Shown: positions 1-63,232, counted from the stretch's first letter. The stretch is 64,000 nt of DNA from a virus (IMGVR_UViG_2599185236_000001:1-64000); one strand, 5' to 3'. A program made the numbers and translations. The notes: a model not told the origin generated them from the letters alone.

Positions 1-636
1 CTATCCATACCGCCTCAACGCCTCATCGACCTTCCCGAACAATGCCTCCGGTGCATTGTCGTTCGCGATGACAAGATCCTCATCGCCGCACCCACGCTCT
101 GATTCGTGATGCCCTGGAATGCCGCCGCGTCCTACCAGCTTGTAGATGTCGCCGCCGAGCCGTCGGATTGCCTGCGCCTCGTTCGGGAAGCGGCAGTCGT
201 CGACAACGACGCGGCCAGCCTGTGCCAGGATGTCTACAGCGCGCTCCCGCCATAGATTAATCCAGAAGCCGTCACCGATGCAGTTCCGGCCCCACTCCGT
301 ACCGAGCGTCTGCATCGCATGCCTTGGCGTCTTCCCTTGCAACAGAGTGCAGGCCTTCTCCTTGAGAGATCCTTCAATTTCCTCCTCAGTCAGGCCAATT
401 AGCCGCATCATATCCTTAAGCGGCCCGGCGAACTTCACGAGCGTGTAGCCGTGCTGCTCGACGAGGTAGCGCGTGGCCGTGGACTTGCCGCTGCCAGCCT
501 GGCCAGTGAAGGCGACGACCGGCGGGAGATTGTCGTTGGCAGGTTCGTACTTGCCGATTGCGGCGCCGAGCGCGTGCAGCTCGGTCGGAACGGCCGTGAT
601 GCAGCCGGGATCGTCGGAATGAATATCAATCAGCAT
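1..636 (-). CDS. deoxynucleoside monophosphate kinase (phage dNMP kinase family)
   Basis: P-loop AFTGQAGSGKST, KFAGPLKDM, TPRHAMQTLGTEWGR, VVVDDCRFPNEA and HESE motifs; ATG at 636 overlaps the upstream gene end. Confidence 0.88.
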   Translation of the reverse strand: MLIDIHSDDPGCITAVPTELHALGAAIGKYEPANDNLPPVVAFTGQAGSGKSTATRYLVEQHGYTLVKFAGPLKDMMRLIGLTEEEIEGSLKEKACTLLQGKTPRHAMQTLGTEWGRNCIGDGFWINLWRERAVDILAQAGRVVVDDCRFPNEAQAIRRLGGDIYKLVGRGGIPGHHESERGCGDEDLVIANDNAPEALFGKVDEALRRYG

Positions 637-847
637 TGAGCGCCTCCTCAATAATCTCTTCGTCGCAGAAGTTTTCTACGGCCAAATTTTGAAAGGTGGT
701 CGCCGGGTCCGAAACCTCTACGGCTGCGGCAAGCGCCATACGCATCCGCTCCAGGTAACGACGCCGCTCACCTCTAGGCATCGACAGCCAAGGCCGTCGG
801 TCGAACTCGGCCTCAGCCTTCGCCATAGCCAGCAAGATCTTGCTCAT
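626..847 (-). CDS. hypothetical phage protein
   Basis: 73-aa ORF with RBS, coupled to the kinase. Confidence 0.55.
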   Translation of the reverse strand: MSKILLAMAKAEAEFDRRPWLSMPRGERRRYLERMRMALAAAVEVSDPATTFQNLAVENFCDEEIIEEALNAD

Positions 848-855
848 AGTGCCTC

Positions 856-1122
856 CTATAGTTTTCTCGCGGGCGTGCCGGGCTTCACCACCGGCCGGAA
901 CCGGCGGACGTTGAATGGCGGATCCTCATCGCCGAACTCAGGGCAGACGCCGCGGTTAATGCCTTCCAGCCTCACGCCGATGTAGTCGCCGTTGAGGTAG
1001 CTGGTGACCTGGCCGACCCATCGGGCCTTGTAGATCGTGCCCGCTGTGATGCCGAGGTACTGCTCGGCGTAGATGCCATCATCCACGCATACGATGTCGT
1101 CGCCGGGTTTGATGTTGGTCAT
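856..1122 (-). CDS. hypothetical phage protein (small beta-rich)
   Basis: MTNIKPGDDIVCVDD...RRFRP; tight operon packing. Confidence 0.6.
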   Translation of the reverse strand: MTNIKPGDDIVCVDDGIYAEQYLGITAGTIYKARWVGQVTSYLNGDYIGVRLEGINRGVCPEFGDEDPPFNVRRFRPVVKPGTPARKL

Positions 1123-1265
1123 GATATCCACCCGCCCTTATTCTCTTCGCACTTGGCGAACCATGTCTCCTGTACCTTTTGGGCGCGCCTTAGCTGCATC
1201 TTTCGCACGGTCTTGTCGAAGCCAAAGAGGAATAGAACCCATTCCCACTGAGTGAAATTGCTCAC
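1119..1265 (-). CDS. small hypothetical protein
   Basis: GTGA and ATGA overlaps with both neighbours; 48 aa. Confidence 0.4.
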   Translation of the reverse strand: MSNFTQWEWVLFLFGFDKTVRKMQLRRAQKVQETWFAKCEENKGGWIS

Positions 1266-1837
1266 GACGCCCTCCCCAGCTTCGGCTCCTCGACGCCAAG
1301 TTCGGGCGGCTCGACGTAGACGATCGGCTTGCCAGCATTCAGAAAGCTTTCGAACTCGTACTTGAGGCCGACCGAATCCCACCAACCTCGCATCTCTAGA
1401 ACGATGAGCGAGGACGCAGCGTCGATCAGAGGCTGGTCCTGATCCTTCCAGAAGTCCCACGTGCGCGGCAGCTCCTGATAGCGGGTTACGGCATGGCCGT
1501 GGGCAATCGGGCAGTAGATCCGCATGCCTCGCGCCATGAGCTTGCCGGCGCACTCTGTGACGACACGCGCCGCCTCATCCATTCCTGCGTCGTACTTGGC
1601 ATATGGAGAGCCGAGATAGATGAAGCCTTGCAGCTTCGCCAGATCGTCCAGCGTGTGCAGCGGCTCGGTCTCCCTGTCACGTGCCGCCAGTTCCTTGGCG
1701 CTATACAGGTAGGGCTTGCCGCTGCCTGTAAGCCCACGGATGCTGGCCGGCACGTTGTCATTCGCGGCAACGTACTTGTCGAGCGGGCCGAATGTGGTTG
1801 TTACCAGATCTGCGGAAACGGTATAACCGGGCATCAT
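1262..1837 (-). CDS. DUF1937-like / nucleoside deoxyribosyltransferase-like protein
   Basis: FIYLGSPY, YCPIAHGH, W-x-Q-D-x-LIDAAS, GW-x-SVGLKYE, GKPIVY motifs. Confidence 0.75.
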   Translation of the reverse strand: MMPGYTVSADLVTTTFGPLDKYVAANDNVPASIRGLTGSGKPYLYSAKELAARDRETEPLHTLDDLAKLQGFIYLGSPYAKYDAGMDEAARVVTECAGKLMARGMRIYCPIAHGHAVTRYQELPRTWDFWKDQDQPLIDAASSLIVLEMRGWWDSVGLKYEFESFLNAGKPIVYVEPPELGVEEPKLGRAS

Positions 1838-2926: not shown

Positions 2927-2983
2927 TCAAGTCTCCTCTGTGGTGGTAGTTGCCGCCGGATGGTGAGGCCGACGGCTTGGTGG

Positions 2984-3148
2984 TTAGATTGTGGTGAGTT
3001 TTTCGAGGAGCGCCTCGAACTCGGTCAAGTGAGCGTCTCGCGCCTTCATCTTCCCGTCGGCAACTTCTTGCGCGTTCCGGTCGAACTTCCTACTCACCAT
3101 CCAGGCGAGTGTTTCCATCTCCCAATCGCTGAGCTCGACGGTCTTCAT
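2984..3148 (-). CDS. small hypothetical protein
   Basis: ATGA overlap with upstream stop, RBS GAAGGAAG; 54 aa. Confidence 0.5.
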   Translation of the reverse strand: MKTVELSDWEMETLAWMVSRKFDRNAQEVADGKMKARDAHLTEFEALLEKLTTI

Positions 3149-4407
3149 GCCGCTTCCTTCACGGGCGCATTGTCGTTGGCCGCCGCATAGCGCCCTGCAA
3201 CCATCTCCGGCGTCATCACGCTCCGGCCGACTTCGCCAGCCTGCTTGTGGTAGAAGATGACCTTGGCGGATCGACCTGAGAGCCATCCGCCATTCGCTGC
3301 GTATGCGTCAGGCGCGGCGAGCGTCTCGTGTTGCTCCACCTTCATAAGGTTGGTGGTCTTCAATTCGTCGGAATGCCGATGACCAACGTGGGCGTAGCTG
3401 AAGCGCGTTCGGCCGTACGCCTCGCGGAATTTGCCGACGAAGACCGAATCGACGTTGCCAGTGCCACGGCGATGTCCGTGGTGGTAGAAGAGCGTGACTG
3501 CGCCATGCTCGATCATCGAGTAGGTGCCCGGGCTGGTGTCAACGCTGATGCGAGGCTCGTCCTCATAGAACGCCGACAGCATCTCTCGCAGCCAGACCTC
3601 GCTTGAGGGGTCGTGGTTCGCATCCGCCATGATTATGTCGACCTGCTCGTGCTTCAAAAGCAGCATGCCGATGACGCGCCGGACAATCCGGATTGCGGCG
3701 CGGACCATCTTGGGATAGCGCGTATCGCCGTCGAGTAGGTGACCGTGCTCCGGCGTGACACTCTTGAATGAGTCGTAATGTAAAAAATCTCCGAGCTGCG
3801 CGAACACGGCGCGGCGAGCAGGCGGCGCTACTGAGATGGCAGACGCAAACCAATCCATGACGAGCTTTTCACCGATCGACAGGTCGTAGTCTCCTGCCCC
3901 GGTCTCTTCGTTCCAGGCAAGTGCGCCTAGGTGAGCGTCGGTAATGGTGTACTGGCAGAGCAGATCTTCCTCAAAGTAGATGGGTGCCGCCACCGGCTCG
4001 GCGCGAGGTATCTCCTCTTTGAACGCCTCGACCGCCGCGTGCATGGCGGAAAGCTGAGCGGCCGAATCCGTCGCAGTCTTGATCCACTTCGCGACTTCCC
4101 TGCCCTGCCCGTCAACGAGGGCCGAGACGCCTTTGATGAACTGGCCTTGCGGTAGCTCGAAAACCTCGCCCGGTGCCTTCGTCTGCTTAATCCAGGCGTC
4201 GCCCTGCTTGCTGGCGATCGACTTGATAGCGAAGCCCGGCAGGACCGGATCCGTACCGAGCTGGCCGCGCTCGGCTGCACGATGGATGTACTTGTGGGCC
4301 GTCCCGTAGCCGACCCCCATAAGCTTGGCGACGGCACGGATGCTGTTGTGCTCGGCGTAAAGTCTGCCGGCCTGTTCGATGTTCTCGGGTGGGATGGGAT
4401 GGCTCAA
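3145..4407 (-). CDS. calcineurin-like metallophosphoesterase with N-terminal HTH
   Basis: TDAHLG, LGDFLHYD, ANHD, HHGH, GHRH motifs; N-terminal SIRAVAKLMGVGYGTAHKY helix-turn-helix; TTG start overlaps upstream stop. Confidence 0.78.
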   Translation of the reverse strand: MSHPIPPENIEQAGRLYAEHNSIRAVAKLMGVGYGTAHKYIHRAAERGQLGTDPVLPGFAIKSIASKQGDAWIKQTKAPGEVFELPQGQFIKGVSALVDGQGREVAKWIKTATDSAAQLSAMHAAVEAFKEEIPRAEPVAAPIYFEEDLLCQYTITDAHLGALAWNEETGAGDYDLSIGEKLVMDWFASAISVAPPARRAVFAQLGDFLHYDSFKSVTPEHGHLLDGDTRYPKMVRAAIRIVRRVIGMLLLKHEQVDIIMADANHDPSSEVWLREMLSAFYEDEPRISVDTSPGTYSMIEHGAVTLFYHHGHRRGTGNVDSVFVGKFREAYGRTRFSYAHVGHRHSDELKTTNLMKVEQHETLAAPDAYAANGGWLSGRSAKVIFYHKQAGEVGRSVMTPEMVAGRYAAANDNAPVKEAA

Positions 4408-4709
4408 GTGGTGGCCTCCTTGAGGGCGGCGTCGATGAGGCCAGACCAGACGCGATTGAACTTGTCGGGATACCCGTCGACACCGAGCGTGATGTTGCCG
4501 TCGCCACAGGAGAAGTCGTCGAAGTAGACGGAAATCTCGTTGGCAGCTTCGTGCAGGGCGGTAGATGGCTCCCGCATCGCTTCGAGGGCGGCGCGGGCGT
4601 GCGGCACGTAGTGCCTCCACCATTGGAAGCTGTTGTGCGATAGTTCGTCGGGATTTTTGCCGTCCTCGGTCGCGATAGCTCGCGCCGCCCGCTCAATCAT
4701 GCTGGTCAT
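4404..4709 (-). CDS. hypothetical phage protein
   Basis: RBS AGGAGAC; MIERAARAIA...ARAALEAMREP pattern typical of small phage proteins. Confidence 0.6.
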   Translation of the reverse strand: MTSMIERAARAIATEDGKNPDELSHNSFQWWRHYVPHARAALEAMREPSTALHEAANEISVYFDDFSCGDGNITLGVDGYPDKFNRVWSGLIDAALKEATT

Positions 4710-4761
4710 TAAGTCTCCTATGGTGATGGTGATTGGTGGCCGCATTCGCGCGGCCCGGTAG

Positions 4762-5415
4762 TTAAGCAGTCCGCCCCAGTAGCGCGCACACCTCGTGCGA
4801 CGGCACGACGAAACCGAACCCGATGAGCGAGGAAGAGAAGCCAAGCGGGACACTCATGACGCCGACGGTAATTCCGATTACATTCCCGTTGGCGTCGAAC
4901 GTGCCGCCGCCACTCTGGCCCATGACAGTCGTGATGTCCGTGACGAACACGGACTTCCAGGGTCCAATCGACCGAGGCTCGCCCGCTATTTTGCCTGTTG
5001 CAGTGACGAACTCGACGGCAAGCGGATTGCCGATCGACGTGATGGCCTCGCCTTTCGCAGCGGTGCGGCAATCCAGGCTGACCGCCGGCAGCATCTCCGG
5101 CGACGTGCGCAGCAGTGCGATATCGTAGGTCTTGTTGATCCAGAGGACATCGGCCGGGCGCGTCTTGCCGTCCTTCGTTTTCAGCTCCACGGTCGCAGCA
5201 TCTCCGGCGACGTGCGCAGCAGTAACGACAAATCCATTGCCGATGTGGACGCCAGAGCCGTGGCCGTTCTTAAGGATGACTTTGACCGTCGCCGTCTCGG
5301 TGGCTGGCGCGGCCATGTAAGTTTCGACGGATGCGGCGACCGTCGGTGCGCCGAAATATGCGGCGCTTGAGAGTGCGACTGCGAGGGCTGCGTATGCGAT
5401 GCGTCTGAGATTCAT
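4762..5415 (-). CDS. trypsin-like (S1) serine protease with N-terminal signal/TM segment
   Basis: GSGV, VTAAHV, DIALL and GQSGG catalytic triad motifs; hydrophobic N-terminus. Confidence 0.88.
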   Translation of the reverse strand: MNLRRIAYAALAVALSSAAYFGAPTVAASVETYMAAPATETATVKVILKNGHGSGVHIGNGFVVTAAHVAGDAATVELKTKDGKTRPADVLWINKTYDIALLRTSPEMLPAVSLDCRTAAKGEAITSIGNPLAVEFVTATGKIAGEPRSIGPWKSVFVTDITTVMGQSGGGTFDANGNVIGITVGVMSVPLGFSSSLIGFGFVVPSHEVCALLGRTA

Positions 5416-44587: not shown

Positions 44588-44935
44588 CTATCCAAGTTCG
44601 ATCGGATACCCGTCGACCCCTATGACCGCGACCTTCTTGCCGCGCTCCATCACCTGCTTGGCGCTGTTGTGGTGGTGAGCGCAAAGCGACTGCAGGTTCA
44701 GTGGGTCATGGAATAGTTCAAGGTCGCCTTTGTGCGCCTTGCGATGGTCGACGACCTCGGCAGCCGTGATGTCCTCGGTGATCAGACAGAACTCGCAAAG
44801 CGGCTGAACCGCAAGCTGATGCTGGCGTAGCCGCTTCCATGCTGCTGTCTGGTAGAGGTGGTGCCAGGTGGACTTGGTTGCGGGGGCTGGACTTGAACCA
44901 GCGACCTCTTGGTTATGAGCCAAGCGAGCTACCAT
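44588..44935 (-). CDS. HNH endonuclease (packaging-associated)
   Basis: LY-x-x-x-AW-x-x-LR, PLCEFC, VVDH, H, NLQSLC-x-x-HHN; start lies within tRNA. Confidence 0.85.
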   Translation of the reverse strand: MVARLAHNQEVAGSSPAPATKSTWHHLYQTAAWKRLRQHQLAVQPLCEFCLITEDITAAEVVDHRKAHKGDLELFHDPLNLQSLCAHHHNSAKQVMERGKKVAVIGVDGYPIELG

Positions 44936-44951
44936 GCTGCTCTACCCCGCA
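44875..44951 (-). tRNA. tRNA-Met (CAT), initiator-like
   Basis: 77 nt TGCGGGGTAGAGCAGCATGGTAGCTCGCTTGGCTCATAACCAAGAGGTCGCTGGTTCAAGTCCAGCCCCCGCAACCA; cloverleaf, encoded CCA, A11-U24. Confidence 0.93.
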
Positions 44952-46786: not shown

Positions 46787-46824
46787 GTGGTCTCCTCTGT
46801 GTGGTGGTGATGCCTCTTGCGACG

Positions 46825-47310
46825 CTAGGCGGCTTTGGTCCAGTTCGCGGCGATCCAAGCGAGGACCAGATCAACAGCCTGCCTCGCTGCATCGTTGGGG
46901 GTAATGGCTGAAACAACCTCGACGTGGTGCCCGATCTTGGCGAGCGCAGCGTGACGTTCCTTTTGCTGCGGGCTGAGCCGGCCTTTGCCAACCTTGTTCT
47001 CGATCATCCGGATCTGACCGTTGGCAAGATAGATGCGGACGTCCGGTTCGCCTGGCGTCATTCCAGCGGAAATTGCCTCTTGCTGGGCACGCGGACCACG
47101 CTTGGCCGCGTTCTGATCTCCAGCTAGCAGGAACTGCTTGCCGTACTCAGGCATGGATCGAAGCGACCGAACCTGAGCCGCCTGCAACTCCCATTCCTTC
47201 GGTAAGGCTGCTTTGGTCGTGACCTTGCCGCTGGCCGACGTGCGGATGATGGTACGGACGCCTTTGATGCGGACAGTCTGCTGGGTGGGTTTGGGCAACG
47301 GTTCCTCCAT
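46825..47310 (-). CDS. VRR-NUC nuclease
   Basis: EWELQ...GM-x-PG-x-PD...IE-x-K-x-x-x-GRLS-x-x-Q. Confidence 0.85.
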   Translation of the reverse strand: MEEPLPKPTQQTVRIKGVRTIIRTSASGKVTTKAALPKEWELQAAQVRSLRSMPEYGKQFLLAGDQNAAKRGPRAQQEAISAGMTPGEPDVRIYLANGQIRMIENKVGKGRLSPQQKERHAALAKIGHHVEVVSAITPNDAARQAVDLVLAWIAANWTKAA

Positions 47311-48980: not shown

Positions 48981-51206
48981 TCAAGCTGCCCTGACGAACA
49001 CCGCCATCTCTCGCCGGATCGGGTCGCGCTCCTCCACCTCGACGAGAGCACCCTCCTTGAACAGTGCCGTGACGACAGTGCCGGCTTTCTTCCTCGCCGC
49101 AGTGTCCTCTAGGTCGAGCCCCATGGCATAGGCCACGGCCGCGCCGACCCAGTTCTTGGCCTTGGCCGACTTCTTGTAGTCAGAGCCGCCTACTGCTGCC
49201 AGGATTGCCTGCCGCTGCTCTGCGGTTAGCTCGCCTGCCACTTCTTCCGCACTAGGCCACTGCCACTCCGTCACGACCGGCGCGAAATCCTGCGGCTTCG
49301 TCAAGCCGCGCCCGTTGCCCAGAGGCACGCCCTCAAGCTTGCGCCAGTCCAGGCGCGACGACAGCGGCGTAAGGTTCGACTTGCCGTATGTCACCGAGAA
49401 GTGACTCATGCGATCCTCAGGCTTTACGCCCGCCTCTGCCGCCTGCTCCGGCGACATCCGGTTAAGCACGCGCACCGAGCGAGCCGCGCCGATCAGCGAC
49501 ACCGCTCCTCGGGCGTCTTCCACTGTCGCCTCGCGATCCGCCACTTTCCGCAAGTGGTGCACGATGTCGATGCTGCAGTTGGTATAGTCCGCAATCTGCG
49601 CCCATAGCTTCGCGACCTTGTCGATCGCGCCGTTGTCGTTCTCGTTGACGCCGTGGGTGGACACAAACGGATCAACGATCATGACGTCGATGCCGTACCG
49701 CTCAATCTGCTCCACAACTGCCTCAACGATCGGCTGCTGGATCCGCACGCCGGCCTTCTTGTCCTCGATGGCGACGCAAAGCTCCTGCTCGCGGCCGCTG
49801 TCCAGGAACAGATGGCCTTCGATGTCCTCCGGCTTGAGGTTGTAGTGGATGCACGCCGCCATGATGCGTCGCTCCATTTCGTCGCGCGGATCCTCCGCAT
49901 TGAACACCCAAACCTTGAGACGCTGCGGCGGCTTGGTGCCGAGCAGTGCCCTGCCCGACGTCATGGCCAGTGCCTCGGCGATGCTGCTGGACGTCTTGCC
50001 GAGGCCCCCGGGGCTGACCGTGACCGACACGTATTTTCGGATGAAGTGCGAGCCATAGGCGAACTCGCGCCGCGGAATCGTGGCAGGATCGATCCACTTG
50101 AAGGCCGTGGCGGTGATGGGGGAGGAAGGCACGTTGTCGTTGGCCGCGTTCCCGCTTGGGATCACATCATCCGTTTCCGGCACGTCCGGCTCCGAATTTT
50201 CCCGTACGGGATCGTCGGCGACCAGCTCGCTCACCACATCCTCATCGACCCTCGCCTCCAGAGCCCTCGCCTTCTCTAGCCCACGCTGAATCATCCGCGT
50301 GATGTCGACCAGGCGCGTGTTGTCTTGCGGTTGGAAATCCGGCTCCGGAATGTGCCGCGGCTGCGCAATGCCAGCCTTCAGCCCGTTCTCGATCGTCTTG
50401 CAGCACCGCGACCAGTCCCTGCCCCAGCCGCGCGCCACGTCCTGCAGCAAGGCGCGCGCCTCAGCCTCCGGCAGTGCACCGGCGCCGACGAAAGTGCCGA
50501 GCGCGAACGCTGCGTCATTCAAGCTGTTGTTGCGGTTGCCCATCGGAGCGCCGGCAAGGTCGGCAAGCTCCCGGTCGACGGCAGCGTCGACGTAGGCGTT
50601 ATTGGTCGCCGATGACGCCGTGTACTTGCTGTGCGTCGGCGCCGACTTCGGTAGCAGCAAATCCAGCAACCACGCAGGCGCGTCTGCGATCTCGCGCACG
50701 TCGTCCACCCACTTGTACTGCCGACCATTCGCCATCGTGCTGCCGGCCGCCACCACGTAGCCGCCCTCAGACCGGATATCGACGCCGGCGCCAAGAGCGC
50801 CGCGGTTGCGAGTGCCCACGACGTACTTGAAGTAGATGTGCATCCCACCGTTCGGGCTGATGACACGCGCCGTTTCTGGCAGCGGGCCGTGCTCGGCCTG
50901 CATCTCGTCCAGCCACAGGAAGCCGTTCGAACCGCCGGGCTTGTTATCGATGTCCAGGGCGAAGAAGCCCGTCGGCGATCCCGTCGGCAGACCGACGGCC
51001 GCGTCGGGCCAATCCGTCCACCAGCGGTCAAGGATCCGGGCAAAACGCGTGGCTGCCTTGAAACCATTCGTGGTTAGCGGGGTTTTCTCGCCGAGCATGA
51101 TGATTTCGCCGTGTTGGTCGACGTGCTCCTCGGCGTGCGAACGGCACGGAAAGACCGGCCAGCCTTGTTCGGTGTAGTGCTGGGCTAATTCAAGCGGCGT
51201 TTGCAA
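48981..51206 (-). CDS. bifunctional primase-polymerase fused to RecA/AAA_25 helicase
   Basis: GWPVFPC, KTP-x-x-x-NGF, ALDIDNK, SPNGGMHIYF, DIRSEGGYVV; SPGGLGKTS, IVDPFVS, IVHH; TTG start with GAGGAG. Confidence 0.92.
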   Translation of the reverse strand: MQTPLELAQHYTEQGWPVFPCRSHAEEHVDQHGEIIMLGEKTPLTTNGFKAATRFARILDRWWTDWPDAAVGLPTGSPTGFFALDIDNKPGGSNGFLWLDEMQAEHGPLPETARVISPNGGMHIYFKYVVGTRNRGALGAGVDIRSEGGYVVAAGSTMANGRQYKWVDDVREIADAPAWLLDLLLPKSAPTHSKYTASSATNNAYVDAAVDRELADLAGAPMGNRNNSLNDAAFALGTFVGAGALPEAEARALLQDVARGWGRDWSRCCKTIENGLKAGIAQPRHIPEPDFQPQDNTRLVDITRMIQRGLEKARALEARVDEDVVSELVADDPVRENSEPDVPETDDVIPSGNAANDNVPSSPITATAFKWIDPATIPRREFAYGSHFIRKYVSVTVSPGGLGKTSSSIAEALAMTSGRALLGTKPPQRLKVWVFNAEDPRDEMERRIMAACIHYNLKPEDIEGHLFLDSGREQELCVAIEDKKAGVRIQQPIVEAVVEQIERYGIDVMIVDPFVSTHGVNENDNGAIDKVAKLWAQIADYTNCSIDIVHHLRKVADREATVEDARGAVSLIGAARSVRVLNRMSPEQAAEAGVKPEDRMSHFSVTYGKSNLTPLSSRLDWRKLEGVPLGNGRGLTKPQDFAPVVTEWQWPSAEEVAGELTAEQRQAILAAVGGSDYKKSAKAKNWVGAAVAYAMGLDLEDTAARKKAGTVVTALFKEGALVEVEERDPIRREMAVFVRAA

Positions 51207-51261
51207 AGACAGTCTCCTCCGCTGCATTTCTATCTGGTCCTGGCGTTCGAAATCGAGAAAC

Positions 51262-52101
51262 TTGCCTCGGATGAGAATCATGAGAGGAATCTGGATGCCG
51301 TGGGGATTTGAGCGGGGTCACATCTACAACAGGCGCAGAGACATTCACGGTCGATTCAAAGGACAGGAGCGAGGAGGCATCGCGACGCCGGCCGGTTATC
51401 CCATCGTCTTTATCTTCACTGGCCTCGGAGGGCTCGACCACGGTTACAGCGATCGCTGGCGTCCCGACGGTGTCTTCGAGTACTTTGGCGAGGGCCAGAA
51501 GGGAGACATGAAGCTCAGCAAGGGCAACCTTGCGATCGCGGAGCACGCGGTTCGCGGCAAGAGCCTTCTCCTCTTCAATCTCCTCGCAAACACGATCCAG
51601 TTCGAAGACGAGATGGTTTTTGAGAACTACCATATTGAGCGAGCACCCGACTCGCACGGAGATATGAGAGATGCAATCGTCTTCGAGCTCCGACGTCTGG
51701 AGGAAGTCGTCGACGCTACCGAGAGCGCGCTGCCGGCCTTTCCACCTGCGGCTTCCCTCGATGATCTTCGACTGGCCGCCATGGCTGCAGCAAAGGCTGC
51801 GCCGAGTAGCAAAATGACCAGCGCAACCGTTTACGAGCGGAGCAGAAAGGTTCGTGACTATGTCCTCGCCCGTTGCGGTGGGAAGTGCGAGCATTGCCGA
51901 AAAGATGCTCCTTTCCTGCGCTCCAACGGCTCGCCGTATCTCGAGCCTCACCATATCCGCCGGCTGTCTGACGGCGGGCCGGACGATCCGAGATTCGTTA
52001 TTGCACTTTGTCCGAACTGCCATCGTGAAGCCCATTTCGGTGACGTGGTAGGGCTTCGACAGACCCACCTCGCCAAGATGAAGGCAATCGAGGTCCTGTG
52101 A
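51262..52101 (+). CDS. SRA-like domain + HNH endonuclease (McrA-like type IV restriction enzyme)
   Basis: GGIATP...YSDRW...FEYFGEGQKGDM; C-terminal CEHC...PYLEPHH...GGPD...ALCPNCHREAH; start may be 51295. Confidence 0.8.
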   Translation: MPRMRIMRGIWMPWGFERGHIYNRRRDIHGRFKGQERGGIATPAGYPIVFIFTGLGGLDHGYSDRWRPDGVFEYFGEGQKGDMKLSKGNLAIAEHAVRGKSLLLFNLLANTIQFEDEMVFENYHIERAPDSHGDMRDAIVFELRRLEEVVDATESALPAFPPAASLDDLRLAAMAAAKAAPSSKMTSATVYERSRKVRDYVLARCGGKCEHCRKDAPFLRSNGSPYLEPHHIRRLSDGGPDDPRFVIALCPNCHREAHFGDVVGLRQTHLAKMKAIEVL

Positions 52102-52109: not shown

Positions 52110-52511
52110 TCATGCCGCCACCCCACGGATTTCCGCCAGCTTAGCCCGCGTCTGCTCAACGGTCAGTATTGGTGTAGGCATATATTGCACATGATACAGC
52201 CAGCCATCGAACAGCTCATAGACTGCAAAGCATGAGAGTAAGCCCCACCTGATTTCACGGCCCACGCCAGCTCCGATCGAACCATCGGTGAACCGCATGA
52301 AGGCAAGCCTGTCGCAGGACTCCACCACCTTCTTGAAGTAGTCCATGCCCTCACGGTCATAGCCATCCTGGTGGCGGGGCTGGTCAGGGTTCTCGATTTC
52401 AAGCGGCTGAGTTGAGCGCTCTTCCGCCCAATACTTTCGTAACGCCGCAATCGCAGCCGCCTGCCGCTCCGTCCCGTAGTCCGTGACCGGGTGCGCCAGA
52501 TAGATCCTCAT
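52110..52511 (-). CDS. nucleoside 2-deoxyribosyltransferase-like protein
   Basis: MRIYLAHP...NPD...SCD...GAGVGREI. Confidence 0.55.
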   Translation of the reverse strand: MRIYLAHPVTDYGTERQAAAIAALRKYWAEERSTQPLEIENPDQPRHQDGYDREGMDYFKKVVESCDRLAFMRFTDGSIGAGVGREIRWGLLSCFAVYELFDGWLYHVQYMPTPILTVEQTRAKLAEIRGVAA

Positions 52512-53452
52512 GCTGCCTCCTCGTAATCGACCATGCAGCCGCAACCGCTGGATCCTGGTTCGTATTCAAAGATGAACTGCGGCTTTGCCAGCATCCGCTC
52601 GGCAAACTCGTCGAGCGAGAGCGGCTTCTTGACGTTGTCGTTCGCACGGTCGGTGAGCATCGTCACCGGCTTGCCGATGTACTCAGCCAGCTTGCGCTCC
52701 ATCATAGCGTCGTAGGCATAGCGCTCCGGATCCGCATAGAAGCGGTTCTGATAGTGAGCGTGGCCGGCCTTAATGCAAAAGCCACCACAGTTGTTGTGGA
52801 TGTAGTTCTTGCGGTAGAGCCGTGGTCGCTCAATTCCGGCCTTTGCAAGGTAGACGAACGCACCGATATCGCCCTCGAAAGTGCCTAGTAGCGGCGCCTC
52901 ATATTGCCATCCGGCCGCCATCTGCCGCTGCGCCAATACGTGATATCGATGCGCCTCATCTGGCCCGATGCCGACGCAGATGATATCGGCCGCCTTGTCG
53001 GCATTCACATCAAGCCAAGCGGCAAGAAAGTCTCGCTTTAGCACCTTCGAGCAAGGATCGATCCGGCTGTTGCCCAAAAACTTTCGATCCCGGAAAACTT
53101 CCCACGGATCGCGCCCCTCAACGAGCCAAGTCAGTTCCGGCATCACTTCCGCCACGTCGGCGCGAAGCTGGGCGAGGAAGGCTCGCCATTCCGGGTTGCC
53201 GGCGTAAGTGGCGATGTCAAACTCACCCAACACGCGGTAGTCTGGAAAGTCTGATGCCCTCGGTAGCACGTTGGAGACGTCGCGATCGATGAGGTGGGCA
53301 ATGCCCTCGATGAGAAACCGGTAGCAGTCGGCATCCTCGTATAGCGTGTCAGCGAAGAGGAAGCGGTGCTCCTCATTAGGGTGTGCGGCCATATCGACTT
53401 TGGCGGCCAGCCAGGAGCCGGCTCCGCCACTAACGCTATGGTATCTGGTCAA
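52508..53452 (-). CDS. PAPS-reductase-like PP-loop (adenine nucleotide alpha hydrolase) protein
   Basis: SVSGG-x-GS, FADT-x-x-ED, CS-x-x-LK, GI-x-x-DE, HNNCGGFCIKAG, GCGC; TTG start. Confidence 0.75.
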   Translation of the reverse strand: MTRYHSVSGGAGSWLAAKVDMAAHPNEEHRFLFADTLYEDADCYRFLIEGIAHLIDRDVSNVLPRASDFPDYRVLGEFDIATYAGNPEWRAFLAQLRADVAEVMPELTWLVEGRDPWEVFRDRKFLGNSRIDPCSKVLKRDFLAAWLDVNADKAADIICVGIGPDEAHRYHVLAQRQMAAGWQYEAPLLGTFEGDIGAFVYLAKAGIERPRLYRKNYIHNNCGGFCIKAGHAHYQNRFYADPERYAYDAMMERKLAEYIGKPVTMLTDRANDNVKKPLSLDEFAERMLAKPQFIFEYEPGSSGCGCMVDYEEAA

Positions 53453-53790
53453 AAAGGCGCCTCCCCTTTTCTGATCACTTCCCTCAACTTGTCGGCGCAA
53501 CCCTTCCAGATCGCGGCGCAGAAGATGAGCACTTGCTCTTCGCTCCATTCGGCTAGGTCGCTGCCGAACTCGTCGACCAGAGGCCCGGCCGCTTCCATGC
53601 CGCCCATGCGAGCCTCTAGCTCGTAAGGATCGAAACGGCGGACGCGCTTCAGCTGCTCGATGAGGATGACGCATTCCTGGCAGAGGTATCTGGGCTCTTT
53701 GCCGTCACCGATACCAATGCCGATCGCGTGACGGCCGCAGCAGTTGCAAACGGCCGGTGTGTCTCCGACTTTGGTGGGTTGGAAGGTCAT
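53449..53790 (-). CDS. zinc-finger protein (DUF6511-like)
   Basis: CNCC...CQEC; ends EAPF. Confidence 0.6.
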   Translation of the reverse strand: MTFQPTKVGDTPAVCNCCGRHAIGIGIGDGKEPRYLCQECVILIEQLKRVRRFDPYELEARMGGMEAAGPLVDEFGSDLAEWSEEQVLIFCAAIWKGCADKLREVIRKGEAPF

Positions 53791-54577: not shown

Positions 54578-55408
54578 TCATGCGGCCTCCCCGAAAAGAT
54601 CCGCCTGGATAGGCGCGTTGTCATTTGCGACCACCGGCGTCGGCACAGGCTCGACAACCACCGTGTGGTCCGGCTCGAAATCAACGCTAACGATCTCGCA
54701 CATCGGCGAAACGCCCTTCCAGTCGTTGATGTAGAATCCCGTATCGATGCCGCAGCCAGCGTCGAAGTGAAGCCCGGTCAGCTCCTGAAACTTGACCGCC
54801 TTGCCATCTTGCTGGCGCCGGTAGTGGCCGCCGCCGCTGAAGTTGAAGCCCGCCGACATCTGCGGCACAATGAAGGCGCCCTCACAGGCGAGGTGAGACG
54901 CGATGTCGATAACGTGGAATTCAAAGTCCCTGCCACTGTATCGCGGTGCATTCTTTTCGCGCTTGATATTGCCGAATGGCGGATTGCTGATGGCCACATC
55001 GAACTGGCCGAGATCCATGCCCAGCACGTCCAGCACGTCGGCGAGGATCCATTCCGCTTCCGGCAGAATCTTCTGCCCGACAGCCAGGTAATCCGGATTC
55101 CGCTCGACGCAGGTAATGCGCGCCCTCTGATGGCTGCGATGCCAGCAGGCATACGAGAGCATGCCGATGCCGGCGCATAGATCGATGATCCGGCCGCCGT
55201 ACCCGCCCTGCCCGATCGCATCGATCGTGAAGTCGAAGGCCATGTCGTATGGCGTGAAGAAAGCGCCCGCCGCACCGTTGACGTGGTTGGCGCCCTCGTT
55301 CCAATTCTTCAGCACGAAGTCCTTGTCGTCTTCGGTAAGGACCGGCTTAGTCAGCAGATCGCATGCCTGCGCATGCGCCTTCGCTTGAGCCTTTGTGAGC
55401 TTGGCCAT
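54578..55408 (-). CDS. amino-(N6A/N4C) DNA methyltransferase, class I SAM
   Basis: GAFFTP, IIDLCAGIG, VERNP, ISNPPFG. Confidence 0.85.
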   Translation of the reverse strand: MAKLTKAQAKAHAQACDLLTKPVLTEDDKDFVLKNWNEGANHVNGAAGAFFTPYDMAFDFTIDAIGQGGYGGRIIDLCAGIGMLSYACWHRSHQRARITCVERNPDYLAVGQKILPEAEWILADVLDVLGMDLGQFDVAISNPPFGNIKREKNAPRYSGRDFEFHVIDIASHLACEGAFIVPQMSAGFNFSGGGHYRRQQDGKAVKFQELTGLHFDAGCGIDTGFYINDWKGVSPMCEIVSVDFEPDHTVVVEPVPTPVVANDNAPIQADLFGEAA

Positions 55409-55983
55409 CAGGCGGCCCTCAGTAGGTCACCGGCCGGTGAATTATCGTTGGCGGCCTCGAACTTCCCAACCTGATTGCCCCACGCCGACCAGCCGGCCCA
55501 AGCCTGCCGAGCGAATAGCTCGAGGTAAGGGCCGCCGACGAGCTTCTCGATCCGGCCATACTGCTCGTCGGGCTTTCGGCTATGCTCGCGGCGCGGCGCG
55601 CGGATCACAGAGCGGACGCCACGGGACAGACGGCGCGGCTTGCCTCGCTTGAACAGGTGGCAGACTTCCACCTCCTGGCGCGTCCAGTAGCCCATGCCCA
55701 TCCTTCCTTTGTCCCAGACGAAGGCGATCGACACCGGCTTGAAGCCCCAAGCCGCGGCCACTTCGATGGCGGCTCCCTGCAGGTGGCTGACGGTCCACAT
55801 GAACAGGAGGCAGTCCTTCGCCGCTACGTCAGCAACGGGCAACGCTGTGATGTCGGCGAGCGACATGACGTCGTAGGGTTGCCCCCCCCGGGCCGGAGCC
55901 ACGCTCTTCTTGCCGTAGGTTCTGAACGCCCACGGCGGATCAGCAAGGATGGCGCCGAAGCGCCCCTCTGGTAAGGGATTCAT
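55408..55983 (-). CDS. MT-A70 family adenine methyltransferase
   Basis: ILADPPW, LFMW, WGF, GMGYWTR...E, HSRKP, YLELFAR. Confidence 0.9.
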   Translation of the reverse strand: MNPLPEGRFGAILADPPWAFRTYGKKSVAPARGGQPYDVMSLADITALPVADVAAKDCLLFMWTVSHLQGAAIEVAAAWGFKPVSIAFVWDKGRMGMGYWTRQEVEVCHLFKRGKPRRLSRGVRSVIRAPRREHSRKPDEQYGRIEKLVGGPYLELFARQAWAGWSAWGNQVGKFEAANDNSPAGDLLRAA

Positions 55984-57897: not shown

Positions 57898-59691
57898 TCA
57901 GAACGGGATGTCATCCCAATCTTCTTGCATCCACGCAGGCTTGTTGTCGTTCGCCGGCGGCTCGTCGTCGTCGTTGGCTGCGCCATAGTCGCCGACCACA
58001 TGAGAAACCACGTCCCAATACCGATCCCTCGGTTTGACCATGATCTCCGCTGTCTCTTTCAACTCGGTCTGGCGCTCCAACCACTCCAAAACGCTTCGAG
58101 GGAACGGCCGCTGGCCTGCATGGGCAAGCCAAAACCTATCCGCCTTAGTTTTGGCGAAGCCGGAATGCTCGGGGCACAGCCACTCGTTGATGGCCGTCAT
58201 GCCAGACATGTAAGTGACTTTGACTGACGGCGGCTTGTCGCCCTTCCCTTCATGGAAGCGGAATGTGCGGCTCGTAACGTCGCGCGAATCCGGCTCGGCC
58301 ATCGTCATGATTGGCACGTCGGCGGCGTTCGCAGCGATCTTCGGGCTGTCATCGATGTCAAACTCGAACCCGCAGCAGGTGCAGATGCGAGCCGAGGCGT
58401 GCAGCTTCTCGCCGCAGCCTGGTTCGCCATGCTTGTCGAAGCCATCCTGCGGGCAGATCTTCATCGGCGCTTCGCCGTCGCCGCTACCCGGCTCCTTCGG
58501 CTCAACCATATCGACCGGCCCATGCTTGTCGACGAGGCCGGCGAAGTCCAGCACGAGGCAGGACGGCTTAGGCCCGGCAGCAATAGCGGCGCGGCGCTCC
58601 TCCGGCGTCTCCAACGACATGCCTGGCGCGTAAAGCACGCGAGTGCCCCTTCCCATCATCTGCAGGTAAAGGCTCGCGCTAAGCGTCGGCCGGAGCGCCG
58701 CAATGAGATCCACGCCCTTGTGATTGAATCCCGTCGTCAAGACTGAGTTGTTGGTCAGAGCGCGGATGCGATAGGCCTTGAAATCCTCGATGATCCGGCG
58801 GCGCTCCTCTTTCGGAGTGTCACCGGTGATGGTCTCGCAGCTGATGCCGCGCGACCGTATCTCGTCGCGGACGTGCTCGGCATGCTCGACACCGGAGCAG
58901 AAGCAAAGCCAAGACCGTTTGTCGGCGCCCTTGGCCACTATCTCATCGACTGCGGCGCGCGTGACGTCCATCTTGTCAACGGCAGCCTGTAGCGCCGACT
59001 GCTTGAAGTCGCCTCCGAGCTTGCCGACTCCCTTGGTGCTGAGCTCGAGAGCGGTATGCTTCGATGACAGCGGGGCGAGGTAGCCATCCCGCACGCCATC
59101 GGCGATGCCGTAGGTATAGACGACGCGGTCGAACATGCGATCGTCTCCCTGGTCGAGGCGACCGCTGTCCAGTCGAAATGGCGTTGCGGTCAGGCCGACA
59201 ATCTTAAAATCCGGATTAACTTCACGCATGACGCGAAAGAACTGGCCGTACTGAGTGTCGCTGTTCTTCGGGATCAAGTGGCATTCGTCGACCAGCACTA
59301 CGTCGATGGGTCGGTCGAAGATCTTCTCGCCGTCGACGACGCGGGCGCCGCAGATCAGGTCCGCCTTGTTCCAGACAGTCTGAATGCCAGCAAAAATGAT
59401 CTGACTGCGCGCGTCTCGGCGGTTAAGGCCGGCTGAGAAGATGCCCGCCGGCGCAAAGGGCCAGACGCCGAGTAGCTCGAGGTAATTCTGCTCAATGAGC
59501 TCGGCCACGTGGGTGACTACCATAATACGCATGTCGGGCCAGCCCTCGACGAGCTGTTGGATGACGGTGGCCATTACCATCGACTTGCCCGTACCGGTAG
59601 CGAGGTCGATCAGCGGATTGCCAGCCTCCTCTCCCCAATAGTCGAACAGCGCCGCAACGGCGTCTTCCTGATAGTACCGCAGCCCCATCAA
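57898..59691 (-). CDS. superfamily II DEAD/DEAH helicase with zinc ribbon
   Basis: LRYYQ, LATGTGKS, VDECH, GLTATP, QMMGRGTR, LDFAG, KICP...CTCC; ends DDIPF. Confidence 0.95.
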   Translation of the reverse strand: MMGLRYYQEDAVAALFDYWGEEAGNPLIDLATGTGKSMVMATVIQQLVEGWPDMRIMVVTHVAELIEQNYLELLGVWPFAPAGIFSAGLNRRDARSQIIFAGIQTVWNKADLICGARVVDGEKIFDRPIDVVLVDECHLIPKNSDTQYGQFFRVMREVNPDFKIVGLTATPFRLDSGRLDQGDDRMFDRVVYTYGIADGVRDGYLAPLSSKHTALELSTKGVGKLGGDFKQSALQAAVDKMDVTRAAVDEIVAKGADKRSWLCFCSGVEHAEHVRDEIRSRGISCETITGDTPKEERRRIIEDFKAYRIRALTNNSVLTTGFNHKGVDLIAALRPTLSASLYLQMMGRGTRVLYAPGMSLETPEERRAAIAAGPKPSCLVLDFAGLVDKHGPVDMVEPKEPGSGDGEAPMKICPQDGFDKHGEPGCGEKLHASARICTCCGFEFDIDDSPKIAANAADVPIMTMAEPDSRDVTSRTFRFHEGKGDKPPSVKVTYMSGMTAINEWLCPEHSGFAKTKADRFWLAHAGQRPFPRSVLEWLERQTELKETAEIMVKPRDRYWDVVSHVVGDYGAANDDDEPPANDNKPAWMQEDWDDIPF

Positions 59692-60230
59692 GCAGCCCGC
59701 CTTTGCAGACGAGCGACGAGAACGGCCCGGGCACGCTCTTCCTTCTGGCGAACGTTCTCTTTGCTCGTGCCGTTCTCGTCTCCGATGTCGGAAAGCAGTT
59801 CGCCGGCCGCGCGACGCAGCACGATGTTTCCGTTCGGGATGCGCTGCAGACGATCAACGACCTCCGCGAGATCGGCGCGAACGAACTGCTCCGGCTGCAC
59901 ACGCAGTTGCGCGCATCTGTTCTCAAGAGGCGCAACGTCATCGCCGACCATGGCATCAATCGAGACTTCAGGCGCGTTGCGCATCTGGCGCCGCTCGCGC
60001 TTGCGCATCCCACTCGCCACGCTCTCCATGACGAGTTGCGCCCATGTCCGGAACGTCTCCATTCTGCATGTGCCGGCACGCCGCAGCATGGCAATCATCG
60101 ATTCCTGCAAAAGATCGTCAGCCTTCTGACGGTCGCGTGTGATTATGCGCGCCTTGCGACGGAGCATAGGAAGGTAGGCGACAAGCGCGGCGTCAAAGCC
60201 GGTCGGCCTGTTGTCATTCGCCGGGATCAT
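59688..60230 (-). CDS. ECF-like RNA polymerase sigma factor
   Basis: region 2 LP-x-LRRKAR...ADDLLQE...FRTW; region 4 LSDIG...KENVRQ-x-E-x-RAR. Confidence 0.7.
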   Translation of the reverse strand: MIPANDNRPTGFDAALVAYLPMLRRKARIITRDRQKADDLLQESMIAMLRRAGTCRMETFRTWAQLVMESVASGMRKRERRQMRNAPEVSIDAMVGDDVAPLENRCAQLRVQPEQFVRADLAEVVDRLQRIPNGNIVLRRAAGELLSDIGDENGTSKENVRQKEERARAVLVARLQRRAA

Positions 60231-60249
60231 GGCGGTCTCCTCTGTGGTG

Positions 60250-61179: not shown

Positions 61180-61466
61180 TATGCCCCACCCCCGAACGCA
61201 AACAGCGGCGACGTAGCAAGCGCAGATTGATGGCCGCGCTGATCGCCAGACCTGACGTAAGTCGTCCAGATCTCCTTGCCGTCCCGTGTCACCGGGTGCA
61301 TCTCGGCGACGCTGTAATCAACGTCGTCGATCTCTTCGGCATCGATGTGGAAGTCATCCTTATCGACTTTCGCCTCGATCATCGCCTCCGCATCTTCCTT
61401 AGAAGGAGCCTCGACGACCTCGGTGCTGCGCCCTTGGAACCGGTAGTCAATCAGGAACTTGGCCAT
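61179..61466 (-). CDS. hypothetical phage protein
   Basis: coupled 95-aa ORF. Confidence 0.55.
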   Translation of the reverse strand: MAKFLIDYRFQGRSTEVVEAPSKEDAEAMIEAKVDKDDFHIDAEEIDDVDYSVAEMHPVTRDGKEIWTTYVRSGDQRGHQSALATSPLFAFGGGA

Positions 61467-61469
61467 GAG

Positions 61470-62528
61470 CTACACCCGAACCGGCATCAAGACGCCGTCC
61501 CAGCCAGCCAAGCCACCGGTGATGACCGCAGCACCGCCACCATCCGAAAGCGCCATCGTGACCTCTCCTGCAGGCAGGACATTGAACAGGTCGCGCACGT
61601 ACTGGCTGTTGAAGCCGACATAGAAAGGCTCGCCGCTGTATTCCGCGGCAACCTCGTCCTCCGCCTCGCCGGCATCAGATCGAGCCGCCAGGGCGATTGA
61701 ACCTGGCGCGATGCTCAGCTTAACCGACCGGCCTTTCTCCGACGAGACAGTCACAACGCGTTCGGCCGCCTTCATCATCTCGTCGCGGTTGACGGTGATG
61801 ATCTTGTCGTTGTCACGCGGGATGACGCGCTGATAGTCTGGGAATGTGCCATCGATCAGATTGGCGGTCAGGCTGATGTCGGCATGCTGGATGCGGATCT
61901 TCTCCTGCGAGACCGAAACCGTCACCTCGCCTTTCGGCAGCAGGCCGACGGTCTTGCGCCCCACGATGACGCCGGCGAACTCCGGAACGACCGGGCCACG
62001 GTTGCGCGCGAGCCGGTGGCCGTCAGTAGCCACAGCTACCGCCTTGCCGTCGACGACGTGGAAGTAGACGCCCCCGAGATAATAGCGGGTCTCCTCTGTC
62101 GAGATGGCGAACGCAACTGGCGCGAACAGGCCGGCAAGGTCGATGTCAAACTCGGCGTCGAATGTGCCCTTGCCGAGGATGTCAGGAAAGTCCGACGCCG
62201 GCAGGGTTTCCAGCTTGAACTTGCTTCGGCCCGACTTCACCTCAAGGCGGTTGTCTACCAGTGAGATGGAAATGTCGGCTGCGCTTGCCTTGCGGACGAT
62301 TTCGCCGAGCAGCTTGGCGCTGACGGTCGTTGTGCCGGCTTTCTGGACATCGGCTTCGGCGCTGGCCGTTGCCTGGATGTCGAGGTCTGTCGCTGTCACC
62401 TTGAGAGTGCCACCCTCGGCCTCCAGCAGGATATTGGACAGGATTGGAATGGTGTTTCTGGCTTCGACGACCTTGCCCACGGCGCCGACGACGCGCGCGA
62501 GTTCGGTGCGGCTGATATTCAGCTGCAT
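61470..62528 (-). CDS. dnaN: DNA polymerase III beta sliding clamp homolog
   Basis: PILSNILL, ATDLD, DFP, AISTEETRYYLGGVY, VATDGHRLA, LIDGTFPDY-x-RVIP, GFNSQY, LMPVRV. Confidence 0.93.
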   Translation of the reverse strand: MQLNISRTELARVVGAVGKVVEARNTIPILSNILLEAEGGTLKVTATDLDIQATASAEADVQKAGTTTVSAKLLGEIVRKASAADISISLVDNRLEVKSGRSKFKLETLPASDFPDILGKGTFDAEFDIDLAGLFAPVAFAISTEETRYYLGGVYFHVVDGKAVAVATDGHRLARNRGPVVPEFAGVIVGRKTVGLLPKGEVTVSVSQEKIRIQHADISLTANLIDGTFPDYQRVIPRDNDKIITVNRDEMMKAAERVVTVSSEKGRSVKLSIAPGSIALAARSDAGEAEDEVAAEYSGEPFYVGFNSQYVRDLFNVLPAGEVTMALSDGGGAAVITGGLAGWDGVLMPVRV

Positions 62529-62585
62529 GATGGTCTCCTCTTGTGGTGTAAAGGCGAGCCGATGGTGAGGCGGCCCGCATTAGAG

Positions 62586-62663
62586 TTAGCGGAGCGCGAC
62601 CCAGACGAACGCCACGAAGGCGAACGCACCGGCCGCGCTGGCGAAGGCGTCAGGCCAACCCAT
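62586..62663 (-). CDS. 25-aa hydrophobic peptide
   Basis: MGWPDAFASAAGAFAFVAFVWVALR, overlapping the upstream stop. Confidence 0.3.
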   Translation of the reverse strand: MGWPDAFASAAGAFAFVAFVWVALR

Positions 62664-63232
62664 CACTTGTTGCCCCAGGGCCGGCGCGTGGTGCCCGCAG
62701 CTGCGCCACCGGCGGGCTTGCTGGCCGCATTGTCGTTTGCAGCCGTACGCTGCTGTCGGTTGTCGTTTGCCGGAGCCGACCGCTGCGCAGGCTGGTTCGG
62801 GTCGATCTCGGCGGCCGGTACATTGCCTTCGTCCGGATAAAAGAAGCGCTTGATCTCGTTGCGCGGCTCGTAGCCCTCGCGCGGTTTCTCGACGCCGACC
62901 TTTGCCGTGAACGAGATGAAATGAAGCTCGTCGGAGTCGTTGACCTCGTTGAGGCCGATGGCGCGGCACAGTTTCGCGAGATCGCGCTGGCCGATCTCCT
63001 GCGCCGTGGAGTTGGCGTTTTCGAGGTTGATGTTCGCGAAGATCTTCCGACCCTTGAACTCCGACGGCTCGACGACGTCGTAGGTGAGCTTGAGGATGGT
63101 TCCGTTGCCCTTAGCCGTCGGCTTCACCTCGGAGGCCGAAACCTCCAGCACATAAGTGCCGTTCGGCAGGTTGCTGCCGCGCTGTTCGGTGTCGTGATCC
63201 TGAGCATTAAATCTTTGACCAAGTCCGGCCAT
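62663..63232 (-). CDS. DUF669 single-stranded DNA-binding protein
   Basis: LPNGTY, GRKIF...N, IG-x-x-x-LAKLCRA, RNEIK. Confidence 0.8.
   Translation of the reverse strand: MAGLGQRFNAQDHDTEQRGSNLPNGTYVLEVSASEVKPTAKGNGTILKLTYDVVEPSEFKGRKIFANINLENANSTAQEIGQRDLAKLCRAIGLNEVNDSDELHFISFTAKVGVEKPREGYEPRNEIKRFFYPDEGNVPAAEIDPNQPAQRSAPANDNRQQRTAANDNAASKPAGGAAAGTTRRPWGNK

Follow-up and report, generated by a model that had tools for sequence, protein, structure and literature searches.

The tetrapeptide Ala-Asn-Asp-Asn (ANDN), identical to the head of the proteolysis tag encoded by the transfer-messenger RNA (tmRNA, ssrA) of the host, occurs 18 times in the genes of a temperate rhizobial prophage related to phage 16-3, in 15 proteins of unrelated families. 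The stretch analysed (IMGVR_UViG_2599185236_000001:1-64000, hereafter the window) comprises 64,000 nucleotides and corresponds to G000:C30:61767-125766 of a 6.9 Mb (6.87 Mb) Rhizobiaceae genome; its genes lie mostly on the minus strand. The explanation that we favour, with a probability of roughly 0.6, is that these copies are genome-encoded docking sites for the adaptor SspB and, together with C-terminal Ala-Ala residues, complete ssrA-like degrons.

Enrichment of ANDN in the prophage

Six-frame translation placed ANDN at the same 18 positions as a preliminary description of this DNA (Table 1). All are on the minus strand, with no copy on the plus strand of the window, and each is in frame with a long open reading frame (ORF), as that description had claimed. 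The prophage extends past the window (about 71 kb, C30:61767-133300; 112 proteins predicted by greedy ORF calls, no gene finder being used) and carries three further copies just beyond the window end (C30:128408, 131657 and 131779), bringing the total to 21, in about 18 unrelated proteins.

Among all tetrapeptides of the prophage proteome, ANDN was the top outlier, with 19 observed against 0.147 expected (Poisson P ~1e-33), which agrees with the roughly 0.1 chance copies estimated beforehand. The next unrelated over-represented tetrapeptide had P ~1e-5, and nearly every NDN of the prophage proteome is preceded by Ala. Both this comparison and one with the host proteome had been proposed in the preliminary description; the long ORFs of the host contain six ANDN in 2.03 million residues, so that the density in the prophage is about 300 times that in host proteins. 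Outside the prophage, the genome yielded 21 matches to GCNAAYGAYAAY, one of which is the tmRNA gene and two of which fall in a single repeat protein. A 28 kb stretch of the window (3181-31181), which holds O-antigen-modifying moron genes and tail-fibre genes, is devoid of the motif (P ~5e-4 for such a gap).

Selection on the peptide

The short linear motif ANDN is under selection as a peptide and not as DNA, because 22 of the 32 possible codon spellings are in use (130 sites in seven related phages, the set to which the pooled counts below refer), because the copies lie in termini and linkers outside Pfam domains, and because the motif is nearly invariant amid varying flanks. The variation of its codons at third positions only and its mostly terminal or linker placement had been noticed before, correctly in both cases. 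The motif is present in 15 unrelated families and has been gained or lost independently of the domain that carries it. A DNA or RNA signal would be expected to be independent of frame, to occur in non-coding sequence and to conserve every base; ANDN has none of these properties, and no out-of-frame, antisense or non-coding copy was found in the window. Even the DNA 8-mer AAYGAYAA, with 23 copies on the coding strand against 3 on the opposite one, is nearly always the in-frame motif. Rfam models detected only a tRNA in the window and no tmRNA-like element.

The flanks of the motif have no DNA similarity, yet they share residues, the third bases being free. The residue at position -1 is Ala in 73 sites and Pro in 36 (together 109 of 130) and the residue at +2 is Pro in 52 of 130, giving the fuller consensus [Ala/Pro]-Ala-Asn-Asp-Asn-x-Pro. 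Placement within the proteins is also far from random: 56 of the 130 motifs lie in the last 25 residues, where 15.6 would be expected, and only 26 are internal, where 76 would be. Unlike the sites with variable flanks, the copies of the family phrog_36072 have conserved flanks and may be structured.

The host tmRNA tag and its adaptor

In proteobacteria, the head of the tmRNA tag is the docking site of the adaptor SspB, which hands substrates to the protease ClpXP; in Escherichia coli, SspB makes contact with AAND..NY within the tag and ClpX with the terminal LAA. The host tmRNA (C26:203591-203955) was detected with the Rfam alpha_tmRNA model, while ARAGORN reported no tmRNA in the host genome. 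It encodes ANDNNAKGYALAA, so that the mature tag starts with A-ANDN, and the first five residues of the tag, (A)ANDNNAKGYALAA, are the same as those of the phage motif (A-A-N-D-N). After ANDN, the tag continues for nine residues in the host of the window and in the congeneric genome G018, and for eight in G274, a genome of another genus.

The machinery that reads such a tag is also encoded by the host. The gene sspB adjoins ssrA, and its product matches the solved Agrobacterium SspB (2NYS, E 4e-91) and Caulobacter SspB-alpha (2QAS/2QAZ) and keeps the conserved C-terminal motif; a ClpX with its zinc-finger domain is present as well. SspB was detected in 40 of 41 genomes of the order. The only SspB match in the genome under study is that of the host, the prophage having no SspB gene. 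The preliminary description had suggested extracting the host tag and sspB, and its link between ANDN and the SsrA tag comes out stronger than it had been put: the host's own tag begins with (A)ANDN, SspB and ClpX are present and, as described below, several carriers have the whole tag layout and ANDN is statistically tied to Ala-Ala C-termini. All copies are encoded inside ordinary ORFs and are not added co-translationally by tmRNA; they are mimics and not true tmRNA tags.

In the arrangement of the host genes, sspB lies directly downstream of ssrA (G000:C26:203014-203955), an adjacency also seen in at least one other genome of the order (G033:C4:855950-856801). The copy at 45914 (A-ANDN-FAE) was considered as a remnant of a tmRNA gene and rejected, since it has no RNA match and belongs to a conserved part of a protein family.

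Complete tag layout and Ala-Ala ends

The most telling structural finding is that the tag is reproduced in full by many carriers. Five of the 112 prophage proteins end in ANDN followed by 7-12 residues and Ala-Ala, against none of 5960 host ORFs. These are the phosphoesterase, both methyltransferases and two small proteins encoded just outside the window. Ala-Ala thus stands at the native distance in 5 of the 21 copies, and the N-terminal, linker and other copies are without it. In the seven phages, 32 motifs lie at most 13 residues from the C-terminus, most commonly at distances of 9 and 7, and the proteins concerned end in Ala in 26 of the 32 cases and in AA or VA in 22. Spacing between the SspB and ClpX sites reportedly matters, according to work on Caulobacter SspB-alpha, and the narrow spacers of 7-10 residues agree with this. 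No clean tracking of spacer length with host tag length was found: the G274 host tag is ANDN plus eight residues, and the tails of its prophage have spacers of 7, 7 and 10.

The association with Ala-Ala is not confined to motifs near the end. When more than 25 residues separate ANDN from the C-terminus, 17 of 39 proteins still have Ala-Ala as their last residues, the sigma factor being an example. This is four times the rate among the ANDN-free proteins of these phages (63 of 575; Fisher P 9e-7), a figure inflated by orthologues, as pooled statistics over related phages overstate independence. In the prophage as a whole, 20 of 112 proteins (17.9%) have an Ala-Ala C-terminus, compared with 4.4% of the ORFs of the host (P 8e-8). 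The G018 prophage shows a smaller excess (9.9%) and that of G274 no significant one (6.8%), and the per-protein counts for these two are rough because they rest on greedy ORF calls.

Conservation within protein families

The C-terminus of the phosphoesterase is the best-sampled tag-like tail. The 120 homologues compared (60-94% identity) come from Mesorhizobium, Sinorhizobium, Ensifer, Rhizobium, Neorhizobium and others; the tail, made up of A-ANDN, a variable spacer of 7 or 9 residues and [AV]A, is kept by 101 of them and wholly missing from about a dozen. Among distant homologues (<50% identity), all but one stop before the tail, which is therefore a clade-specific add-on; no alternative tag head was found in these distant proteins. 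In phrog_36072, both ANDN are nearly invariant in 121 homologues, most of which end in Ala-Ala 9-10 residues past the second motif. The sigma factor family shows a different pattern, with ANDN in 7 of 23 members, in a variable segment N-terminal to the conserved core, and a C-terminal Ala-Ala in 18 of 23.

Distribution among phages

High ANDN counts were obtained for the prophages of G018 (20) and G274 (13), for Rhizobium phage 16-3 (18), RHph_TM3_3_14B (18) and RHph_X2_25 (20), and for Sinorhizobium phage NV1.1.1 (20). In these relatives, the motif occupies orthologous sites together with new ones, including those in Xis, an HNH protein and the Cas4-like nuclease of 16-3. Carriers in 16-3 include Xis, nucleases, the portal and the helicase, and its protease p036 also has a copy. 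The early/replication module is common to all ANDN-rich phages and their structural modules differ. The trait is missing from eight other phages or prophages that were checked. Five phages that have the helicase/Cas4 module in common with the ANDN-rich ones were not enriched in ANDN, and the Pseudomonas phages MiCath, PAJD-1 and Iggy, which have that module, had 0-1 copies.

Two loci outside these phages also came to light. A cluster of four ANDN-coding copies on a small contig of a congeneric genome (G003:C24:993-16365) may be a fragment of a 16-3-like prophage. In the host, a 72-aa ORF outside the prophage (G000:C21:349224) has P-ANDN near its C-terminus and an acidic, Trp-rich tail, and may belong to another mobile element.

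ANDN as proposed SspB-docking sites and ssrA-like degrons

If the motif is the start of the host's tmRNA tag copied into phage genes, then about a quarter of the copies, those that stand 7-12 residues before a C-terminal Ala-Ala, would combine an SspB site, a spacer and a ClpX degron, and their proteins would probably be constitutively unstable. In this prophage the complete tag is found on nucleases, on two DNA methyltransferases and on small DNA-binding proteins, and in relatives on an Xis-neighbouring HNH protein, the Cas4-like nuclease and the portal. A degron function fits carriers of these kinds, among them the portal, whose C-terminus assembly would bury. Moron genes, which are expressed in the lysogen, have no copy of the motif, and this fits as well. 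N-terminal, linker and other-ended copies would probably only tether their protein to SspB, which could help ClpX to engage a distant Ala-Ala end or could compete for limiting SspB. The purpose might be the clearing of leaky lytic proteins in lysogens, timing, or coupling to the load on host ribosome rescue; the preliminary description had named timed turnover, titration of host SspB/ClpXP and recruitment of ClpX as a remodeller as candidates. SspB binding, degradation by ClpXP and these physiological purposes are what we infer from the sequences.

A broader proposal is that the whole 16-3 lineage uses tmRNA-tag mimicry as a global control of its own proteome, which we regard as speculative and rather unlikely. 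Roughly a fifth to a third of the phage proteins would then stand in one SspB-ClpXP queue with the ssrA-tagged waste of the cell; leaky lytic proteins would be erased in lysogens, and phage proteins would rise together once the queue saturates, upon induction or when ribosome rescue is overloaded. If it exists, such a control would provide a built-in threshold and a stress sensor for lytic development.

Several observations weigh against SspB docking and ssrA-like degradation. The canonical geometry is found in only about a quarter of the copies, and the textbook hand-off from SspB to ClpX does not accommodate sites at the N-terminus or in the interior of a protein. The consensus also departs from the tag: the residue at +1, which in the host tag is Asn, is variable, and host tags have no Pro at +2. 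ANDN is carried, too, by capsid, portal and tape measure, which are long-lived proteins of the virion. The trait is confined to one lineage, the ANDN-dense contigs of IMG/VR being all 16-3-like, and 0-1 copies were counted in the G321 prophage, RHph_Y5A, Sphingomonas phage MMDA13 and Rhodobacter phage RcSpartan; two hosts of such low-ANDN alphaproteobacterial phages, including that of G321, carry an ANDN tag. The gamma-type tag heads ANDEN and ANDDN were probed for co-variation with the host tag. Tandem ANDEN was found in no IMG/VR locus and tandem ANDDN in one, of low complexity, and neither occurred in the three Pseudomonas phages; no co-variation of the phage motif with host tag type emerged from these probes. 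Finally, C-ending codons are over-used inside the motif relative to background (AAC 81% vs 67%, GAC 80% vs 60%, GCC 47% vs 36%), for which the shared ancestry of non-independent orthologous sites may be the cause. The host tmRNA likewise spells AAC-GAC-AAC.

Alternative explanations

It is improbable, in our estimation, that ANDN docks a hub encoded by the phage itself, such as the sliding clamp, the SSB-like protein or another early/replication protein, so that phage proteins would be gathered into one assembly and the likeness to the tag would be a coincidence. What speaks for a hub also counts against SspB in part: the trait is limited to phages with one common early module, other phages of hosts with the same tag are without the motif, and the tag has neither the Pro at +2 nor a variable +1. 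Replication proteins are moreover among the many carriers, and the methyltransferase tails include a clamp-binding-like DLF. Nevertheless, a hub leaves unexplained why the motif should match the start of the host tag exactly, why Ala-Ala stands at native spacing and why ANDN and Ala-Ala ends are associated. Two further points against it are the lack of enrichment in the five phages with the helicase/Cas4 module and the presence of the motif in structural proteins of non-homologous head modules.

Cleavage at ANDN by a phage protease, which the preliminary description had offered as an alternative, is disfavoured by the present data and seems very improbable. Two candidate enzymes are encoded in the window, an S1-like protease (4762-5415) and a ClpP-like prohead protease (39616-40479), protease p036 of 16-3 itself carries a copy, and the classically processed capsid, portal and tape measure proteins have one motif each. 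Yet tblastn searches of the fetched regions did not find the S1-like protease in the G274 region and found the ClpP-like prohead protease only there, so that no protease is common to all ANDN-rich phages. Moreover, the carriers are mostly non-structural early proteins rather than processed substrates, several motifs are so near a terminus (at residues 4-10, or 3-9 residues from an end) that a cut there would serve no purpose, and the Ala-Ala ends would be left without explanation. Least credible of all is a nucleic-acid signal, whether a DNA site (for a methylase or a regulator, a Chi-like element or a recombination linker) or a feature of RNA or translation. The codons AAY-GAY-AAY are all read by queuosine-modified tRNAs, the genome is a mosaic in which the copies gather near the ends of genes, and the mild over-use of C-ending codons could be taken in the same sense. 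Against this, 21 of 21 copies and those checked in relatives are in the coding-strand frame, with a frame-blind chance of ~(1/3)^18. Variation among the 22 spellings is only synonymous, positions -1 and +2 are conserved as amino acids, and neither non-coding copies nor an Rfam tmRNA-like element were found in the window; the link with Ala-Ala has no nucleic-acid explanation. On these grounds we reject the DNA-motif and protease-site readings.

Comparison with known systems

Compared with the native alphaproteobacterial SsrA tag, the complete phage copies likewise end in Ala-Ala after a spacer of 7-10 residues, in a host that has the adaptor and the protease. They differ from it in being gene-encoded rather than added by trans-translation and in occurring in ~18 proteins of one phage; the majority stand near the N-terminus, in linkers or in tails that end differently, and Pro is preferred at +2. 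Flynn et al., in 2003/2004 (the 2004 paper is among those cited in PMC5587285), reportedly described ClpX C-motif-1 degrons and natural SspB substrates (MuA, other LAA-like C-termini and an RseA fragment). These too are natural proteins that reach ClpXP through an ssrA-like C-terminus or the SspB adaptor, which for the phage proteins is a prediction. However, they are without the AANDN head, RseA binds SspB via an unrelated sequence, and they are single cases and not proteome-wide. Eukaryotic viruses mimic short linear motifs of their hosts in the disordered ends of unrelated viral proteins. There, as here, a short, convergently gained copy of a host recognition signal is involved, albeit in another domain of life and with other machinery. 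We know of no description of proteome-wide short-motif mimicry in a phage, and neither our literature searches nor a look for relevant terms in the AP-16-3/16-3 genome paper turned up any account of the ANDN motif. New here are the association of distant ANDN with Ala-Ala ends, the family-wide conservation counts, the gene-content case against a common protease and the negative-control phages.

In synthetic biology, split ssrA degrons and proteolytic queueing have been engineered (PMC12013620; bioRxiv 10.1101/2023.11.08.566101). Those designs have separable SspB- and ClpX-binding parts and couple many proteins via one limiting protease, as is proposed here, but they are man-made and work in E. 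coli, whereas the phage arrangement is natural and conserved in a lineage. Pseudomonas phage pf16 encodes an SspB homologue (PMC5587285) and thus interferes with the same adaptor pathway that we propose; pf16 carries the adaptor, whereas the 16-3-like lineage carries the adaptor's putative ligand and no SspB gene.

Should SspB docking be confirmed, this would be the first known natural case of a phage with a host quality-control degron built into many of the proteins that it encodes, a bacterial counterpart of motif mimicry by eukaryotic viruses and a natural version of split ssrA tags and proteolytic queueing. The annotation and expression of these phage proteins would also change, as tagged tails may destabilise them in rhizobia, and rhizobial genetics could draw on the tails as native degrons. 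For the question, phage 16-3 and its host Sinorhizobium meliloti form a classic, genetically tractable system.

Carrier proteins in the window

The carriers are listed in Table 1. Their annotations mostly hold as first given, except that the protein called a regulator (45869-46858) belongs to phrog_36072, a family of unknown function.

Table 1. ANDN motifs and tag-like C-termini in the window (window positions; residue numbers refer to the carrier protein)
Position	Strand	Carrier	Location in protein	Remarks
55-66	minus	dNMP kinase (ORF 1-651)	ANDN, residues 196-199	17 residues from C-terminus
529-540	minus	dNMP kinase	ANDN, residues 38-41	Directly before P-loop domain
1754-1765	minus	DUF1937 protein (ORF 1262-1837; domain 73-175)	ANDN, residues 25-28	Kept in G018, NV1.1.1 and X2_25
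2849-2860	minus	MazG-like pyrophosphatase (ORF 2459-2926)	ANDN, residues 23-26	
3145-3186	minus	Phosphoesterase / DNA-repair-exonuclease-like (ORF 3145-4623, phrog_704)	Tag-like C-terminus	A-ANDN + 7 residues ending Ala-Ala
3169-3180	minus	Phosphoesterase	ANDN of C-terminus	
31182-31193	minus	Tape measure protein (ORF 31014-34130)	ANDN, residues 980-983 of 1038	
39523-39534	minus	Major capsid (ORF 38209-39606)	ANDN, residues 25-28	N-terminal to Phage_capsid domain 176-462; kept in G274 orthologue
40500-40511	minus	Portal (ORF 40488-41720; domain 50-379)	ANDN, residues 404-407 of 410	
45914-45925	minus	phrog_36072 protein (ORF 45869-46858)	ANDN, residues 312-315 of 329	
46667-46678	minus	phrog_36072 protein	ANDN, residues 61-64	
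50133-50144	minus	Prim-Pol/AAA_25 (ORF 48981-51281)	ANDN, residues 380-383	Interdomain linker (domains 33-204, 389-581); C-terminal Ala-Ala
52634-52645	minus	PAPS-reductase-like (ORF 52508-53674)	ANDN, residues 344-347 of 388	C-terminal Ala-Ala
54578-54628	minus	Class I methyltransferase (ORF 54578-55408)	Tag-like C-terminus	ANDN (54617-54628), clamp-binding-like DLF, Ala-Ala; layout also in relatives
55408-55452	minus	MT-A70 methyltransferase (ORF 55408-55983; domain 9-171)	Tag-like C-terminus	A-ANDN (55441-55452) + 10 residues ending Ala-Ala; ANDN begins at residue 178, past the domain
57943-57954	minus	SF2 helicase (ORF 57898-59691; domains 2-351)	ANDN, residues 580-583 of 597	C-terminal tail
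60210-60221	minus	Sigma factor (ORF 59688-60230; region 2 from residue 18)	ANDN, residues 4-7	C-terminal Ala-Ala
62729-62770	minus	SSB-like DUF669 (ORF 62663-63232; domain 18-120)	Two ANDN (62729-62740, 62759-62770), residues 155-168 of 189, starting at 155 and 165	Tail

In 16-3 and TM3_3_14B, the C-terminus of the portal consists of ANDN, 8-9 residues and Ala-Ala. The ANDN site of the SF2 helicase is kept in relatives and is in tandem in G018, G274, 16-3 and NV1.1.1. The same helicase ends in an acidic tip, D-D-I-P-F (57898-57921), like the C-terminal tip of bacterial SSB; in relatives the tip reads DGIPF, DEIPF or DEVPF. The phage's own SSB-like DUF669 protein has a basic RPWG motif at its C-terminus instead of an acidic tip.

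The methyltransferase tails stack ANDN, a sliding-clamp-binding-like x-DLF and Ala-Ala, with an exact QLSLF in one relative. This stacked tail is also found at G018:C1:1226923, in 16-3 at 52619, in TM3_3_14B at 36794 and in X2_25 at 41318, and in the IMG/VR loci L117, L119, L126 and L136. A beta-clamp is encoded by the phage at 61470-62528, and clamp binding might shield the putative methyltransferase degron.

A tRNA-Met gene at 44875-44951, detected with both ARAGORN and Rfam, overlaps the 5' end of an HNH-endonuclease ORF (44588-44935) on the same strand, and the first ATG of that ORF falls within the tRNA-Met gene.

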